A stretch of DNA of 64,000 nucleotides from Candidatus Omnitrophota bacterium (lineage in GTDB: Bacteria; Omnitrophota; Omnitrophia; Omnitrophales; Aquincolibacteriaceae): contig JAZDJU010000040.1 of NCBI GenBank assembly GCA_043803685.1, positions 23,997 through 87,996 on the forward strand, read 5' to 3'. This document shows positions 23,548 to 30,191 of this stretch, piece after piece; the first letter of the stretch is position 1, and each line of letters starts with the position of its first letter. Below the pieces are notes generated by a model. That model did no database searches, was not told where the DNA came from, and saw nothing but the letters and a program-made list of their open reading frames with translations. The position numbers were made by a program, and so were the translations under genes.

Positions 23548-24429
23548 ATGACATCCACAAACAAGCTTAAGATCGCGATACCCAAGGGAAGTCTCGAAGA
23601 GGCGACCTGTAATCTTTTCAAGCGGGCCGGCTACAAGATCAACGTCAGCTCCCGTTCCTACATTCCTTCCATCGACGACCCCGAGATCGAGGTCGTGCTC
23701 TTTCGTCCCCAGGAAATGTCGCGGTACGTTGAAGATGGTATTGTGGATTGCGGCCTGACGGGGCATGACTGGATCGTGGAGAACGATTCCGATATCGTGG
23801 AACTGTGTGAACTTCAATACTCCAAGCGCACCTCGAACCCCGTTCGCTGGGTCCTGGCCGTGCACGAGTCTTCGCCGTTCAAAAGCATCAAGGACCTGAA
23901 CGGGAAGAAGATCGTGACCGAGCTTGTGAGCGTCACGAAACGTTATCTTAAGAAGAACAAAGTGAACGCGGAAGTCGAATTTTCGTGGGGCGCCACGGAA
24001 GCCAAACCGCCGAAACTCGCGGATGCTATCGTGGAAGCGACCGAGACAGGGTCCAGTCTTCGCGCGAACAAACTCAAGATCATCGACACTGTCATCGTTT
24101 CTATCCCTAAGTTCATCGCGAACAAGCAGAGCGTGAAGAACCCCTGGAAAAAGCAGAAGATGGACAATCTGATGATGCTCCTCGAAGGCGCCATGCGCGC
24201 TCAGGAGAAGGTGGGCCTGAAGATGAACGTCGAGAAGAAGCACCTGCAAAGGGTCCTGAGCCTTCTTCCGGCCATGAAAAAACCGACCATCGCGAACCTG
24301 ACGGACAAGAACTGGCTCGATGTCGAGACCATTATTGACGAGTCCGTGGTCCGGGAATTGATCCCGGCGCTCAAGAAGGCCGGCGCGTCGGGCATTATCG
24401 AATATCCGCTCAATAAAGTGATTCCGTAA
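23548..24429 (+). CDS. hisG: ATP phosphoribosyltransferase (long form)
   Basis: [24 protein letters not shown]-terminal regulatory domain. Confidence 0.95.
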
Positions 24430-24610: not shown

Positions 24611-24640
24611 CAAAGTGTCGCCTGGAAAGGCGACGCTTTG

Positions 24641-24710
24641 CGTGAAGGCGGGGAACGGTCAGCGGGAAGCGCATTCTTTGCGTTCCCCGTTCTCCGTTTC
24701 CCGTTTTTTT
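24641..24710. repeat. 7-nt-periodic inverted-repeat element (CGGGGAA/TTCCCCG family)
   Basis: CGGGGAA CGGTCAG CGGGAAG ... CGTTCCC CGTTCTC CGTTTCC CGTTTTT. Confidence 0.7.
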
Positions 24711-24749
24711 CTTTCCAATGGTTTTTCACAGACTGCCCGCAGGCTGAGT

Positions 24750-25628
24750 ATGAAAAAAATCACCCTTCAGAGTCCCGCGAAACTCAATCTCCACCTGCGC
24801 ATTCTTGGGAAACAGCCGGACGGGTATCACAAGCTTTTGACGCTTTTCCACCGCATTTCGCTCGTGGACACGATCGTGATCCGCAAACGTTCCGCGGGTT
24901 TCAAGCTCACGACGAACATTCCTTCGCTTGAGACCGGGGAAGGGAACCTCATTACCAAAGCCTACCGCGCGCTTCAGAAGAGATTCCCGGAGTTGGGCGG
25001 GGTTTCTGTGCGACTTACCAAGCGTATTCCTCTGGGGGCGGGGCTCGGCGGCGGTTCCAGCAATGCGGCGTTCTTTCTCTTGGGGATGAAAAGACTTTTC
25101 CGGCTCAAGCTTTCCACGAAGGAGCTCTTGGCCATGGGGAAGAAGCTCGGGGCCGATGTCCCGTTCTTCCTTCTCGAGGCACGGCAGGCGTTGGCCTGGG
25201 GGATCGGGGACAAGCTCGAAAAGACGCCGTGCCGTGCACGTCTCGGATTTCTCTTACTTGTAACAGACCAGGGGCTGAATACGCGAAAAGTCTATCAAAC
25301 GCTTGCCTGGAGCGGGCGGCCCCTTTCCTTGACAAAGGAAAGGCGTATTGCTAAAATCCTGCGCTCTTTTCTAGATAGAAAGAGGATCCGGGAAGCATCG
25401 ACGCTCGCGCAAAATGACCTGGAAACACCGGCCTTTCGCTTAATGCCGTCCGTTCCCAAAGCCATGTCGGTCCTCAAAGACCACGGCGCGCCTTTCGTTC
25501 TCATGAGTGGAAGCGGGGCCACGGTCTTCGTAGCATTCTCCAGCCGGAAAAAAGCTTTAGATTTATCGAAGAGATTGAAAGAAGTTCCCTTTCCTTTTCG
25601 CAAGGTGATTTGTCACTCATACGAGTAG
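24750..25628 (+). CDS. ispE: 4-diphosphocytidyl-2-C-methyl-D-erythritol kinase
   Basis: SPAKLNLHL, KRIPLGAGLGGGSSNAA, LGADVPFF, MSGSG. Confidence 0.95.
   Translation: MKKITLQSPAKLNLHLRILGKQPDGYHKLLTLFHRISLVDTIVIRKRSAGFKLTTNIPSLETGEGNLITKAYRALQKRFPELGGVSVRLTKRIPLGAGLGGGSSNAAFFLLGMKRLFRLKLSTKELLAMGKKLGADVPFFLLEARQALAWGIGDKLEKTPCRARLGFLLLVTDQGLNTRKVYQTLAWSGRPLSLTKERRIAKILRSFLDRKRIREASTLAQNDLETPAFRLMPSVPKAMSVLKDHGAPFVLMSGSGATVFVAFSSRKKALDLSKRLKEVPFPFRKVICHSYE
25329..25357 (+). promoter_or_regulatory. Internal sigma70 promoter within ispE, probably for tRNA-Gln
   Basis: TTGACA(25329)-N17-TAAAAT(25352) with TGn extended -10. Confidence 0.6.
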
Positions 25629-25740
25629 TCCCAATACTGATCAAATGAAGCGAATCGGTCCCAATACCGATCAATCAAAGCGTAGCTGAGATTGGGGCCG
25701 TCCAAACTTCCATCGTGGAAAAGAATAAAAAGTTTGGGCG
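25628..25740. repeat. Two-hairpin intergenic element with 30-nt tandem duplication
   Basis: GTCCCAATACTGATCAA / GTCCCAATACCGATCAA; GGGCCGTCCAAACT-N22-AGTTTGGGCG. Confidence 0.65.
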
Positions 25741-25822
25741 GAAATTGGGGCAATCCTTTCTCAGGCTTTTGATTCAAAGCACGGCTGGAAGAAGATCTTT
25801 AAGGACGGTTTTGTAAGTTTAT

Positions 25823-25931
25823 TGCCCGGTGGTGAAATGGTATCACACTGCCCTTTTCCGCCTGAGGCGGATTCGTCCGCGAGGCGAATCCCCCGATGGA
25901 CGGATTCGCCTCTGGCGAAGGAGGCAAGATT
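25823..25931 (+). pseudogene. 5' part of a split tRNA-Gln (acceptor 5' strand, D arm, anticodon arm with 63-nt insert)
   Basis: TGCCCGG TG GTGA AATGGTA TCAC A CTGCC CTTT [63 nt, 25857-25919] GGA GGCAA GATT; no T arm follows. Confidence 0.85.
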
Positions 25932-25936
25932 TTTAA

Positions 25937-26173
25937 ATGTGGGTCTATGTTTTGGAAAGTCAAAAAGACAACCGTCATTACGTTGGCAGCGGTGAAGACG
26001 TCGAAGAAAGATTGCGGCGGCACAATTTAGGCGATTATCGCTATACTAAGGGTCATCGTCCGTGGATTGCGATTTACCGGGAGTTTTGCAAGTCTCGCTC
26101 GAAGGCTGTTAAGCGCGAACGGTTTTTGAAGTCAGGTGTCGGGCGAAAGTATTTGAAAACAGTTTTACAGTAG
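25937..26173 (+). CDS. Small GIY-YIG endonuclease (UPF0213/SLX1-like)
   Basis: WVYVLES..HYVGS..RLRRHN..YTK..RPW..AVKRERFLKSG. Confidence 0.9.
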   Translation: MWVYVLESQKDNRHYVGSGEDVEERLRRHNLGDYRYTKGHRPWIAIYREFCKSRSKAVKRERFLKSGVGRKYLKTVLQ

Positions 26174-26186
26174 CTTGATCAGTTAG

Positions 26187-26257
26187 TGCCCCGTGGTGAA
26201 ATGGTATCACACTGCCCTTTGGAGGCAAGGTTCCTGGTTCGAGCCCAGGCGGGGCAG
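26187..26257 (+). tRNA. tRNA-Gln (anticodon TTG), intact, CCA not encoded
   Basis: Acceptor TGCCCCG/CGGGGCA, D stem GTGA/TCAC, anticodon loop CTTTGGA, T arm CCTGG TTCGAGC CCAGG. Confidence 0.93.
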
Positions 26258-26267
26258 ATTTGAGCAT

Positions 26268-26780
26268 ATGATGGAAAAATTAATGATAGAAATATTAGAA
26301 AAGTTTCAAGGCGCCTTTTTAGTTTTACTGAGCTCTCTGTTGAGTTTCCTGTTTGCGTTATGGGCATTCAATCATCAGGAAGCGAGAAGAGAAGGAAAAA
26401 ACGAAAAAGATGTTTTAAAGAATTTTCTTAGCGAGATTAAATTAAATGAAATTCGTTGTGGAATGATGGTCGATTCCGAATCATTTAATTTATTCGATAT
26501 CGATGTTCTTAACAGGTTTAAGAATAGCGCGCAATTTTTGAGCAAAGCCATTGCCAAATATGTAATTTTCATTGGACTCGTTAATAATAGCGTTGCTGAT
26601 TTTTTGGATTTCGAGCGATTTTATACTGGTGATGCAAAAAACGGGACTCAAGAAAACGAGAAAGCGTCGAATTCTAAAAGAATCAGACTGCTTGAAAGCC
26701 TGAAAAGTTTCCAAGAAACTTTGGCTATGGCTAAGGCTGATGTCGCGGCTATTTTAGAAAAGGGTAAGATGGGTAAATAA
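26268..26780 (+). CDS. Hypothetical AT-rich protein with N-terminal TM helix
   Basis: ORF fills the gap between intact tRNA and right repeat; start placed after the tRNA. Confidence 0.6.
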   Translation: MMEKLMIEILEKFQGAFLVLLSSLLSFLFALWAFNHQEARREGKNEKDVLKNFLSEIKLNEIRCGMMVDSESFNLFDIDVLNRFKNSAQFLSKAIAKYVIFIGLVNNSVADFLDFERFYTGDAKNGTQENEKASNSKRIRLLESLKSFQETLAMAKADVAAILEKGKMGK

Positions 26781-26782
26781 TT

Positions 26783-26892
26783 ACTGCCCTTTTCCGCCTG
26801 AGGCGGATTCGTCCGCGAGGCGAATCCCCCGATGGACGGATTCGCCTCTGGCGAAGGAGACAAGATTCCTGGTTCGAGTCCAGGCCGGGCAG
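26783..26892 (+). pseudogene. 3' part of split tRNA-Gln (anticodon arm with same 63-nt insert, T arm, acceptor 3' strand)
   Basis: A CTGCC CTTT [63 nt, 26793-26855] GGA GACAA GATT CCTGG TTCGAGT CCAGG CCGGGCA G; CCGGGCA pairs with TGCCCGG at 25823. Confidence 0.85.
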
Positions 26893-26906
26893 TTGTTCTA
26901 GTGAAC

Positions 26907-27033
26907 AACTACTATGCCGTGAGAGTTCAGGGATAACTCTCTACGGCATGGCAGTTTTGCCAGTGCAAAACTACTACGCTGTGACGGCTCAATGAAAGCC
27001 GTCTACCGCGTCGCCGTCTCTGTCGCAGTTTTG
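26907..27033. repeat. Two tandem hairpins with shared architecture
   Basis: AACTACTA TGCCGT GAGAGTT CAGGGAT AACTCTC T ACGGCA / AACTACTA CGCTGT GACGGCT CAATGAA AGCCGTC T ACCGCG. Confidence 0.6.
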
Positions 27034-27056
27034 TAAATGAGGATGTCTGAACTTAC

Positions 27057-27968
27057 ATGAAAAACGGAATGAAGGATAAAACGAAGGAAACGATCGCGGC
27101 GTACGGCTTTCTCATGCCGAACCTGCTCGGGTTCCTTCTGTTCACGTCGATCCCGGTGCTGGCGTCTATGGGACTCAGTTTCGTGAAGTGGGACCTTTTG
27201 TCGGACGGTCCGCAGTTCACGGGGCTTGCGAACTTTATCGAGCTCGTCAAAGACCCGTTCTTCGGGAAGTACTGCTGGAACACGATGGTCCTGATGGTGG
27301 CCATTCCCATCAGTATGACCGGGTCGCTTCTCTTGGCGATCGCGCTCAACCAGAAGCTTAAAGGTACGGTCGTTTTCAGGACGCTCTATTTTCTCCCGAC
27401 CATCTGCTCGGGCGTTGCGATCTTCATGCTCTGGCGTTTGATCTATAATCCCAATTTTGGCCTCTTGAATGGGATGATCGCAAATTTTGGGGATTTGCTG
27501 GGGCTGCATTTGACGGGACCGAACTGGCTAACCGACGAGGCGTGGGCCAAACCGTCTTTTATTATCATGAGTGTGTGGCAATCGATCGGCGGATATAACA
27601 TGATCCTTTATCTCGCGGCGTTGCAGGGGGTGCCGCGGGACCTTTATGACGCCGCGGAAGTGGACGGCGCGAACAACTGGCAGAAGTTCTGGAACGTGAC
27701 CTGGCCGCAGATCTCACCGACGACCTTTTTTATCGCGACCATGAGCTTGATCGGCGGGTTCCAGGCGGGGTTCGACCAGGCGTACATCATGACGGGCGGC
27801 GGGCCGAACGGGTCCACGACGACGATCATTTATTACATTTTCAACAACGCGTTCGAATGGTACCGCATGGGATACGCGGCCGCTATTTCGTGGGTCCTGT
27901 TCCTGATCATTTTTGCCGCGACGGTCGTGAAATGGCGTTTTTTCGGCAAGTCGGTCCATTACACCTGA
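27057..27968 (+). CDS. Carbohydrate ABC transporter permease (MalF/UgpA-like)
   Basis: LYDAAEVDGA EAA loop, MTGGGP, MGYAAAI. Confidence 0.9.
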   Translation: MKNGMKDKTKETIAAYGFLMPNLLGFLLFTSIPVLASMGLSFVKWDLLSDGPQFTGLANFIELVKDPFFGKYCWNTMVLMVAIPISMTGSLLLAIALNQKLKGTVVFRTLYFLPTICSGVAIFMLWRLIYNPNFGLLNGMIANFGDLLGLHLTGPNWLTDEAWAKPSFIIMSVWQSIGGYNMILYLAALQGVPRDLYDAAEVDGANNWQKFWNVTWPQISPTTFFIATMSLIGGFQAGFDQAYIMTGGGPNGSTTTIIYYIFNNAFEWYRMGYAAAISWVLFLIIFAATVVKWRFFGKSVHYT

Positions 27969-28940: not shown

Positions 28941-30191
28941 ATGGAAGCGATCGTGCTCGCGGCGGGAAAAGGAACGCGGATGTGTTCCGAGCTGCCGAAA
29001 GTCCTGCATCCGGTGTTCGGAAAGCCCGTGCTCGGATACGTGCTCGAGACTTTGGCCGGTGCCGGGATCAAGAACCTCCTGGTGGTCGTGGGCCACAAGG
29101 CCGATGAAGTGCGTTCCTTCGCGAAAAATTATGGCGCGACCTCGGTGCTTCAGCGCGAGCAAAAAGGGACCGGCCACGCGGTGATGATGGCCAAGGCCGC
29201 GATTAAACAGGCGCAAGGTCCTGTGCTGGTTTGGCCGGGGGATATGCCGCTTGTGAAGGCGGAAACGCTTACGAAGTTTCTGGCGGCGCATAAAAAGTCG
29301 CAGGCGCATGTGAGTGTTCTGTCCTGTATCCAGAACGACCCGTTCGGTTATGGAAGGATCGTGAGAGAAGAAGGGCATTTTGCCGCGATCCGCGAAGAGC
29401 TGGACGCCACGCCCGAAGAGCGCGCGATCCGGGAAGTGAATACCGGTATCTATCTTTTTGATAAAAAAGTTTTGTTTGAAGCTCTGGGAAAGATCGGACA
29501 GAACAATCAAAAGGGCGAGTATTATTTGACGGACACTGTGGAAATTCTCCGGCGCGAAGGTTATTGCGTGGAGGCTTTCGCGCTTGCGGACGCGGAAGAA
29601 GGGCAGGGGATCAATTCCCAGAATGATCTGGCCGCCGTGACGAAAAAGATCAATGAACGGGAGATCGCCAAGCACCAGGGAAAAGGCGTGACGTTCATGG
29701 CTCCCGAGCAGACCTTTGTGGCGCCGGGCGTGAAGATCGGCAAAGGTGCGACGATCTATCCGTGGTGTTTCATTGAAGGTGGGGTCGAGATCGGTGCGGG
29801 AAGTGAGATCGGTCCTTTCGCGAAGATCCGCCGCGGCACCGTGATCGGCGACGGCGCGGTGATCGGGAGTTTTGTCGAGGTGAACCGGAGCCGTCTCGGG
29901 AAAAAAGTTTCAGCCAAGCATTTGACTTATTTGGGGGACGCGGTGATCGGCGACGGTGTGAATATCGGAGCCGGGACGGTCACGGCGAATTTTGACGGAA
30001 AGAAGAAGCACCCGACCGTGATCGGGAAAAATGTGATGGTGGGTTCTAATACGGTCTTTGTGGCGCCTGTCCGCATCCCGGATGGAGTAAAAACGGGCGC
30101 GGGGTCCGTGGTGATCTCAAAAATTAAAATTAAAAAAGGGGATGTGGTCGTCGGCGTTCCAGCCCGGCCCGTCTCGAAGAAGAAAAGGTAG
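28941..30191 (+). CDS. glmU: Bifunctional UDP-GlcNAc pyrophosphorylase / GlcN-1-P acetyltransferase
   Basis: VLAAGKGTRM..LPKVLH, GEYYLTD, HLTYLGDA, hexapeptide repeats. Confidence 0.92.
   Translation: MEAIVLAAGKGTRMCSELPKVLHPVFGKPVLGYVLETLAGAGIKNLLVVVGHKADEVRSFAKNYGATSVLQREQKGTGHAVMMAKAAIKQAQGPVLVWPGDMPLVKAETLTKFLAAHKKSQAHVSVLSCIQNDPFGYGRIVREEGHFAAIREELDATPEERAIREVNTGIYLFDKKVLFEALGKIGQNNQKGEYYLTDTVEILRREGYCVEAFALADAEEGQGINSQNDLAAVTKKINEREIAKHQGKGVTFMAPEQTFVAPGVKIGKGATIYPWCFIEGGVEIGAGSEIGPFAKIRRGTVIGDGAVIGSFVEVNRSRLGKKVSAKHLTYLGDAVIGDGVNIGAGTVTANFDGKKKHPTVIGKNVMVGSNTVFVAPVRIPDGVKTGAGSVVISKIKIKKGDVVVGVPARPVSKKKR

Follow-up and report, generated by a model that had tools for sequence, protein, structure and literature searches.

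Few sequences in biology are more conserved than tRNA genes, which makes these genes ideal landing sites across species. Integrase-type tRNA islands and prophages exploit them by integrase-mediated insertion, which leaves a direct repeat of the tRNA 3′ end and restores an intact gene. Nucleases of the GIY-YIG superfamily form part of several other systems in which tRNA genes or hairpins are involved. The Ssn proteins, GIY-YIG nucleases of a single domain, have genes with hairpin repeats on either side and cleave single-stranded DNA next to these repeats; the authors of the report on them point out the resulting repeat–gene–repeat layout, which is like that of an insertion sequence (Chenal et al. 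2025, PMC11893778). The phage nuclease SegB cleaves within tRNA genes and drives recombination-dependent tandem amplification of segB together with a tRNA gene, and in phages its homologues are found near tRNAs more often than elsewhere (PMC13096335). The anticodon loops of bacterial tRNAs can harbor group I introns associated with GIY-YIG homing endonucleases (reviewed in PMC3984707), and a term search of a 2006 survey of the superfamily turned up no clade linked to tRNA genes (PMC1564403). The present study concerns a 64,000-nucleotide stretch of DNA from a Candidatus Omnitrophota bacterium (the window; contig JAZDJU010000040.1, forward-strand positions 23,997 to 87,996), in which a tRNA-Gln(UUG) gene lies in two outer pieces around a 78-amino acid GIY-YIG nuclease gene, an intact tRNA-Gln(UUG) and an orphan open reading frame (ORF), with a 63-nt hairpin element, here called E, in each outer piece. 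Our preferred interpretation, held with moderate confidence, is that this locus is a nested, integrase-free selfish cassette, consisting of a single-domain GIY-YIG nuclease gene and its cognate GC-rich hairpin, lodged within a tRNA gene.

Results

A tRNA-Gln gene in two pieces around a copy of another type

The genus has two allelic types of tRNA-Gln(UUG) with linked differences, type A (CCCGG...GATT...CCGGG) and type B (CCCCG...GGTT...CGGGG), and the locus contains both: the outer pieces are type A and the inner tRNA is type B. In what follows, G000 is the genome of the window and G001 and onward are its relatives, 40 of which were searched; L-numbers denote loci and C-numbers contigs. The outer 5′ part (25823..25856) matches the first 34 nt of the inner tRNA at 33 positions, the sole difference being in the acceptor stem (CCCGG vs CCCCG), and is identical to the intact type-A tRNA of G012, G007, G010, and others. 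The acceptor CCGGGCA of the outer 3′ part (26856-26892) pairs with the outer 5′ part and not with the inner tRNA. The first-pass annotation, made from the letters alone, had described just these three pieces, a 5′ half, an intact inner gene, and a 3′ half, and both its acceptor pairing and all of its coordinates hold. The inner tRNA, in turn, is identical to the type-B tRNA of six congeners (G001, G002, G004, G008, G014, and G015).

The order ispE–tRNA-Gln–permease is conserved in the genus. Downstream of the outer 3′ part, the flank matches the one found after the intact type-A tRNA in G011, an empty site with no nuclease gene, and the 5′ flank of the outer 5′ part resembles the native region upstream of the tRNA in G008. 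Because the outer halves keep native flanks both upstream and downstream, they represent the resident gene, and because they are type A whereas the inner copy is type B, it follows that the resident gene was split and a gene of foreign type brought in. We therefore regard the inner tRNA-Gln(UUG) as the imported replacement copy. The window is a particularly clear case in that the resident and imported tRNAs are of different allelic types and the resident halves retain their native flanks.

ARAGORN finds only one tRNA in the window, the tRNA-Gln(UUG) at 26187-26257. G000 is a metagenome-assembled genome of 2.9 Mb in 133 contigs, 91% complete with 6.6% contamination, and among the 45 tRNAs found in it by ARAGORN without the intron option tRNA-Gln(UUG) is represented by the inner copy alone; the anticodon of the other glutamine tRNA is CUG. 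The idea that the inner gene makes the cassette indispensable cargo is therefore a reasonable one, as had been proposed from the layout. An early idea that G000 contains many split tRNAs was dropped; ARAGORN reports 27 tRNAs with the intron option and 45 without it.

The hairpin element E

The 85-nt direct repeat of the outer pieces (25847-25931 and 26783-26867, spacing 936 nt, one mismatch) was recovered by sequence comparison exactly as first described. It does include the anticodon arm, as had been said, but tRNA sequence accounts for only 22 of its 85 bases (positions 26-35 and 36-47 of the tRNA). The remaining 63 are E, a separate conserved element inserted between anticodon-loop bases 35 and 36. 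The outer tRNA thus consists of one piece with bases 1-47 and another with bases 26-76, which overlap and both contain E at 35|36. E is made up of three short hairpins of the form TYCGCC-N3/4-GGCGRA and lies exactly between the second and third anticodon bases. The proposal that the tRNA arm serves simply as a recombination site has accordingly been abandoned: three quarters of the repeat is E, which has copies in other tRNA fragments and at non-tRNA sites and a target preference of its own.

E is 95% identical on average over 13 copies from 8 genomes, with variation almost solely in one loop, and this recurrence argues that the 85-nt repeat is not a product of chance. Near-full-length copies are present in 6 of the 40 relatives. 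The copies within one locus have genome-specific loop variants in common, which suggests local copying, and the variant of the window was seen only in G000. E is also found inside incomplete tRNA-Arg gene copies, where it occupies the anticodon loop or the T loop, and in G000 a further copy adjoins a 3′ fragment of tRNA-Arg(UCG). Metagenome contigs yielded 28 copies in 26 loci, with non-tRNA sites among them and about 11 of the 28 copies in a tRNA context, several of these loci duplicating genomes already counted; there were no exact E cores in viral contigs. Insertion of E is clean, with target bases neither duplicated nor deleted, and the consensus over 21 distinct flank contexts is CTTY|GRAG. 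The stub beside E is always of the same tRNA type as the adjacent fragment, and E therefore sits within a contiguous piece of tRNA gene.

We give almost no credence to the alternative that E is an intron or a processing signal and that the outer halves, as a split or intron-bearing gene, still give a functional tRNA-Gln. Its attraction lies in the site, the anticodon loop being where bacterial group I introns occur, in the stable folding of E (z about −4.2, as DNA or RNA), and in a weak match to a structured RNA. A scan of 25500-27200 against Rfam (E-values up to 5) returned, besides the tRNA, only this sub-threshold match to the Actinomyces-1 motif (23.2 bits against a threshold of 39.1), and neither a group I intron nor any other ribozyme family. 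However, removal of E in silico restores a tRNA in none of 14 copies, every E-bearing piece being a partial tRNA; E is inverted relative to the tRNA in G017 (C30) and occurs at sites outside tRNAs; and in the window a complete tRNA separates the two halves, which lie 936 nt apart, and a change in the outer 3′ half breaks the anticodon stem. We regard E as a DNA element and not an intron.

The Actinomyces-1 match covers E and the GGAG that follows it (25854-25923 and 26790-26859), the common features being an outer stem and the 3′ end GGCGAAGGAG. Actinomyces-1 may itself be a hairpin element of E’s kind rather than a small RNA; the main text of the paper introducing the motif does not mention it.

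Other small elements are associated with tRNA genes in these genomes. A second hairpin element (TCCGCC...GGACGGATTCGTCC...GGCGAA) lies in the T loop of the outermost tRNA-Gln 3′ fragment in G016 (L024:1591-1677) and G005 (L031:1705-1745), two species having a relic of it at the same position. In G000, a tRNA-Arg(UCU)-like gene (C33:483-761, L164) has an insert of about 203 nt in its anticodon loop, which comes after U and ends in G, as group I introns do, and has no Rfam match even at E-values up to 1; the G000 assembly yielded no intact tRNA-Arg(UCU), and a 3′ fragment of this tRNA type in G016 has E in its anticodon loop. Finally, a module of about 110-170 nt directly follows several tRNAs (tRNA-Arg(UCG) and tRNA-Leu(UAG) on C104 of G000, and the tRNA-Gln of L031 and L027). 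Besides a long AT-rich hairpin it contains the motif GAAGGGAGC and GCGGGTGGCCGACC, and at its end the 3′ end of the tRNA in question is repeated. These modules look like a separate family of small elements collecting behind tRNA genes.

The nuclease and the orphan ORF

Both protein-coding genes that had been placed between the repeats were recovered at those positions. The nuclease matches Pfam PF01541 (E-value 2.1e-14; 54 bits against a cut-off of 22.6) over residues 1-70 of 78, and its residues Y4, Y15, R25, H29, and E61, which we take to be the GIY-YIG active-site residues, are invariant in 10 homologues. Its structure model (predicted local distance difference test score, 94.8) has the GIY-YIG α/β fold and comprises the catalytic domain only. 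The nearest folds are UPF0213 BH0048 (1zg2), the nuclease domain of Slx1, and the catalytic domain of I-TevI, with probabilities of 0.96-1.00 but Foldseek E-values of 2.5e-3 or weaker, and a sequence search of the Protein Data Bank with the nuclease gave matches to UPF0213 and I-TevI only. By sequence (E-values 7.5e-4 and 1.2e-3) and by fold (template-modeling scores 0.58-0.68; 28-35% identity), the closest solved relatives are Slx1 and the UPF0213 proteins BH0048 and EF2693. Slx1 is a structure-specific nuclease for branched DNA that works with Slx4 in eukaryotic repair, and by analogy such a branched-DNA specificity would suit hairpin targets. We know of no target for the UPF0213 proteins, nor of any link between tRNA genes and either Slx1 or UPF0213.

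The ratio of nonsynonymous to synonymous substitution rates (dN/dS) of the nuclease is 0.06-0.16 between genomes, pairs with G022 being left out since they were mis-registered by one codon; synonymous sites differ by 49-62% between genomes and by 28% between two tandem copies in G012. Together with the 95% identity of E, these ratios indicate that both the element and the protein are maintained by selection. The anticodon-stem stub contains a GGAGG that lies 8-12 nt ahead of the nuclease start, and in G012 a TTG start lies 8 nt past the same GGAGG, which is likely the ribosome-binding site of the nuclease gene. A promoter scan of the locus found nothing above shuffled expectation.

The orphan ORF has a G+C content of 32-37% against approximately 52-58% in the flanks. 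It belongs to no family in Pfam, NCBIfam, or PADLOC, and has one weak PHROG match of unknown function (E-value 0.0027).

Occupied and empty sites among the relatives

Of 27 tRNA-Gln(UUG) loci in the relatives, 21 have no GIY-YIG gene within about 1.5 kb and 6 have one, and 7 of the 21 show ispE, a plain tRNA, and the permease gene together. A comparison proposed by the first-pass annotation has thus revealed both empty and occupied sites, the module arrangements differing among the six occupied loci. In G012, a nuclease gene is followed by two 370-nt units, each made up of a type-B 5′ part with E, a stub, and a nuclease gene, and then by an intact type-A tRNA. In G022, a 5′ part whose 25-nt upstream flank is duplicated precedes E, after which come a stub of the tRNA type proper to G022, the nuclease gene, and an intact tRNA. 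The loci of G018 and G016 start with the nuclease gene and a type-B tRNA, behind which a unit of a 33-nt spacer, a 6-nt stub, E, and a 3′ part is present once or twice. In G005 and G004, a different hairpin of 61 nt occupies the D-arm of a short 5′ fragment, and the nuclease is 53-54% identical to that of the window.

Three one-step models were considered and rejected, namely insertion of a fixed element at 35|36, Campbell-type integration of a circle, and duplication of an 85-bp target. Without extra assumptions, none of them accounts for all the layouts of G000, G012, and G016. The notion of the 936-bp unit as a fixed element does not survive the comparison either, the orphan ORF having homologues in none of the 40 relatives and nowhere else among 5.8 billion database proteins.

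These patterns bear on whether the nuclease–hairpin pair might be a domesticated host function, either an Ssn-like limiter of incoming single-stranded DNA or a SegB-like amplifier or exchanger of tRNA genes, with the split tRNA as a by-product. G000 and the relatives examined have between one and eight mini GIY-YIG genes per genome, which would agree with such a function, and there are two precedents: Ssn nucleases, flanked by their own hairpin repeats, modulate transformation (PMC11893778), and SegB-driven amplification of a tRNA gene assists a phage in escaping a tRNA-cleaving defence (PMC13096335). Nevertheless, the gene is patchily distributed among congeners, some copies are pseudogenes (that of unit 2 in G012 has one TAG stop), arrangements vary from genome to genome, and an essential gene is disrupted, all of which are typical of selfish DNA, and we consider a host function quite improbable.

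A wider family of cassettes

When one genome per species was scanned, the nuclease proved to have at least 540 relatives, and the following counts refer to the best 79 of these 540, which span Bacteroidota, Ignavibacteriota, Chloroflexota, Patescibacteria, Verrucomicrobiota, Pseudomonadota, and other phyla. A tRNA lies within 1.2 kb in 51 of the 79 loci, against approximately 3 of 79 expected from 45 tRNAs in 2.9 Mb; the nearest one is on the same strand as the nuclease in all 51 and no more than 100 nt away in 34. The supposition that GIY-YIG homologues would be found with tRNA fragments was borne out, as partial copies of the neighboring tRNA occur in 44 of the 51 loci, some of them repeated in tandem with a period of 316 or 349 nt. 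A perfect GC-rich hairpin of 6 bp or more adjoins 40 of 57 fragment ends, vs 30 of 789 control windows. The hairpins include two families that reappear in different phyla, CCTGCCTGCCGGCAGGCAGG and TCCGCC-N3-5-GGCGGA; the latter is the first unit of E. Two layouts recur as well: a 5′ fragment with a hairpin, a short continuation, the nuclease gene, and an intact tRNA; or an intact tRNA, the nuclease gene, a stub, a hairpin, and a 3′ fragment. The family is nearly absent from viral contigs, where three relatives of the nuclease were found.

In G000 itself, the sole tRNA-Lys(CUU) is the site of a second cassette, which follows the first layout (C104:5590-6100, minus strand; L165). It begins with 7 nt of upstream flank and bases 1-17 of tRNA-Lys(CUU), followed by the hairpins TCCGCC...GGCGGA and CCCGCC...GGCGGG, a 7-nt stub, a 106-amino acid GIY-YIG gene, and an intact tRNA-Lys(CUU) that the 3′ end of the ORF overlaps. 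A third nuclease gene lies 158 nt after tRNA-Gln(CUG).

Taken together, these comparisons place the locus in a widespread cassette family, which we take to be akin to known kinds of selfish nuclease elements. No description of chromosomal mini GIY-YIG–hairpin cassettes splitting tRNA genes was found in the literature searched, subscription journals lying outside its coverage.

The same counts weigh on a further alternative, in which these loci are passive products. Hairpins like E would cause replication to stall or be substrates of host enzymes, repair of the ensuing breaks in tRNA genes would leave partial duplications, and the GIY-YIG gene, as a passenger or in some unrelated role, would mobilize neither E nor the cassette. 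Consistent with it, E occurs without a nearby nuclease gene, both in tRNA-Arg fragments and at non-tRNA sites, and two relatives, G017 (only 75% complete) and G036, have E but no close homologue of the window’s nuclease (best identities, 52% and 44%, respectively); moreover, an enzymatic role for the nuclease is argued from association. Yet a passenger would hardly be under such strong purifying selection (dN/dS, 0.06-0.16), and same-strand tRNAs in 51 of 79 loci, with tRNA fragments in 44 of those 51 and breakpoint hairpins across phyla, are hard to explain for a passenger. We consider this account unlikely.

Assembly support

A two-strain chimera, or a repeat collapsed or expanded in a metagenome-assembled genome, could in principle produce a locus of this kind. 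The assembly is fragmented into 133 contigs with 6.6% contamination, two tRNA types could stem from two populations, and no public run contains more than 7% of the sampled words. In four read runs, only relatives’ pieces of E and of the tRNA were found, and the orphan ORF had no cover. However, the junction of 5′ part, E, stub, and nuclease recurs in the independently assembled G012 and G022, and that of stub, E, and 3′ part in the independently assembled G018 and G016. Both types of junction are present in metagenome contigs and in short contigs of run X1, the latter reproducing the junction of the 5′ part with E and that of E, stub, and nuclease start with 0 and 1 differences, respectively. 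In addition, the two repeat copies differ at one base and the flanks are syntenic on both sides. An artefact is in our judgment very unlikely.

Layout of the locus and its neighborhood

Table 1. Features of the tRNA-Gln locus and its neighbors, in window coordinates
Feature	Coordinates	Strand	Evidence or remark
ispE (GHMP kinase), conserved left neighbor	24615..25628	+	Pfam GHMP_kinases_N and _C; synteny with tRNA-Gln in relatives
Resident tRNA-Gln(UUG) 5′ part, type A, acceptor CCCGG, ends at second anticodon base	25823..25856	+	
Hairpin element E copy 1, 63 nt, three short TYCGCC-N3/4-GGCGRA hairpins	25857..25919	+	
12-nt continuation of resident tRNA: anticodon-stem 3′ strand, type-A diagnostic GATT; contains GGAGG	25920..25931	+	Sequence, type comparison
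Single-domain GIY-YIG nuclease gene, 78 amino acids, starts 5 nt past left repeat	25937..26173	+	Pfam PF01541
Intact tRNA-Gln(UUG), type B, acceptor CCCCG/CGGGG	26187..26257	+	ARAGORN; Rfam 57.2 bits
AT-rich orphan ORF, 170 amino acids, N-terminal hydrophobic stretch, ends 2 nt ahead of right repeat	26268..26780	+	
10-nt stub: 5′ strand of tRNA anticodon stem plus loop, just before E copy 2	26783..26792	+	
Hairpin element E copy 2	26793..26855	+	63/63 positions identical to copy 1
Resident tRNA-Gln(UUG) 3′ part, type A, acceptor CCGGG, with G-to-A change breaking anticodon stem	26856..26892	+	
ABC-transporter permease gene, conserved right neighbor	27057..27968	+	Pfam BPD_transp_1; 87-93% identity beside tRNA-Gln in genus relatives
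glmU	28941-30191		Two ABC-permease genes between tRNA locus and glmU

The coordinates of the features are collected in Table 1. The locus had been placed between ispE and glmU; ispE is indeed its left neighbor, but two permease genes separate the tRNA from glmU. All large ORFs between 15.3 and 38.5 kb that match a family are housekeeping genes (GatA- and GatB-like, TsaD, MgtC, HisG, IspE, the two ABC permeases, GlmU-like, Prs, L25, Pth, SSB, L9, DnaB, and an Omp85-family, BamA-like protein), and two ORFs have no family match. Consistent with the initial description of the element as integrase-free, the large ORFs of this interval contain no integrase, recombinase, or transposase domain, tyrosine and serine recombinases included.

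Beyond the outer 3′ tRNA part, positions 26893-27030 hold two tandem modules of about 66 nt, each beginning GTTKTKCYAGTG and each with a hairpin, and similar modules come after tRNA-Gln in G011, G010, G006, and G008. On the other side, the 195-nt gap at 25629-25822 contains a 25-nt direct repeat (25628-25652 and 25658-25682, 84% identity). The relatives have a small gene, presumably SpoVG-like, between ispE and tRNA-Gln, which is missing from that interval in G000.

Discussion

How the cassette moves we infer from the arrangements described above. The nuclease may break DNA at or near E, or in the CTTY|GRAG loops of tRNA genes that lack E, and the break would be repaired by recombination, with conserved tRNA sequence as the homology. 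The survivors would be only those products that retain one intact tRNA. Tandem arrays could arise from unequal recombination between a fragment and an intact copy, and E might be copied into any dispensable copy of its target. The constant orientation of tRNA and nuclease, together with the stub GGAGG 8-12 nt before the start codon, suggests that the nuclease gene and the inner tRNA are transcribed from the promoter of the resident tRNA, and that the nuclease is translated from a ribosome-binding site in the anticodon-stem stub, which the last hairpin of E could sequester and so mask.

A more ambitious form of this scheme is a break-and-replace drive on tRNA genes, representing a new integrase-free class of mobile DNA, in which a nuclease reduced to its catalytic domain and its hairpin would disable the resident gene through clean insertion into a CTTY|GRAG loop, the cassette would supply the sole working copy, and the host could not then lose the cassette. 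E would be the nonautonomous partner, moved by the GIY-YIG enzyme through a structure-directed mechanism involving single strands or a cruciform. We put this forward tentatively, as a possibility that we rate below even, and we know of no transposition or homing chemistry for structure-directed movement of a hairpin by a GIY-YIG enzyme.

Several points weigh against the selfish cassette that we favor, in addition to the two E-bearing relatives without a close nuclease homologue and the scarcity of the sampled words in public runs. The link between the nuclease and E is one of association, with cleavage, expression, and movement all postulated from sequence. The combination of type-B fragments with an intact type-A gene in G012 would fit simple insertion only if the crossover point were selected, and the order of events behind two E copies and an 85-nt overlap does not appear to be reconstructible. 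The inner intact tRNA has the same anticodon loop as the split gene, and its escape from cleavage or from insertion of E is explained by selection only. The unit hairpin is not enriched in G000 (14 matches vs 6-16 in five simulated genomes). Finally, the published degenerate SRM motif of the Ssn system has no match in 25700-27000 or in the whole window, on either strand.

If the cassette interpretation is correct, a nuclease of 78 residues and a hairpin would be all that is required for essential tRNA genes of many phyla to be invaded, split, and replaced, with no recombinase involved. Such cassettes would account for many of the orphan tRNA halves and tandemly arranged tRNA fragments that are annotated in genomes, and would offer a natural case of addiction by essential-gene replacement. 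They would also tie together the hairpin-specific Ssn nucleases and SegB-driven tRNA amplification, and might provide very small structure- or site-specific nucleases for single-stranded DNA technology.

Comparison with known systems

SegB and Ssn are the closest published systems, and neither is described as splitting chromosomal tRNA genes. Ssn proteins resemble the window’s nuclease in being single-domain GIY-YIG proteins of about 80-100 amino acids (78 here). Their genes, moreover, are flanked on both sides by a GC-rich hairpin (NTS/SRM) that is also dispersed in genomes, just as copies of E flank 25937-26173. They differ in that the main text of PMC11893778 makes no mention of tRNA, whereas here the hairpins lie within broken tRNA copies and an intact tRNA accompanies the gene.

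With SegB, a free-standing nuclease of phages T4 and T6, the family has in common a GIY-YIG gene beside tRNA genes; cleavage inside tRNA genes is a feature of SegB. The tandem amplification of nuclease gene plus tRNA reported there likewise recalls the 316-370-nt arrays of the cassette family. The presence or absence of the insert between conserved genes (21 of 27 loci without, 6 with) is reminiscent of Seg-like homing endonucleases. In contrast, SegB is a phage protein, and a larger one with a separate DNA-binding region, while the present family is chromosomal and consists of a 78-amino acid catalytic domain without a separate DNA-binding domain. Neither a hairpin element nor a split resident tRNA is described for SegB.

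Like the integrase-type islands, the locus has an insertion within a tRNA gene, part of the tRNA as a direct repeat, and an intact gene. Unlike them, it has no integrase, is less than 1 kb long, and brings along a whole tRNA gene, and its repeat consists of tRNA bases 26-47 (the anticodon arm) plus a 63-nt insert rather than the tRNA 3′ end. The likeness to group I introns lies in the insertion in the anticodon loop of a tRNA gene and in the association with a GIY-YIG nuclease. However, E has only 63 nt, matches no ribozyme, never stands between both complete exons, and can be inverted or lie outside tRNAs. From these differences it follows that a gene interrupted by E is killed and not spliced, and that a spare copy is needed, which in the window would be the inner, type-B tRNA-Gln(UUG).

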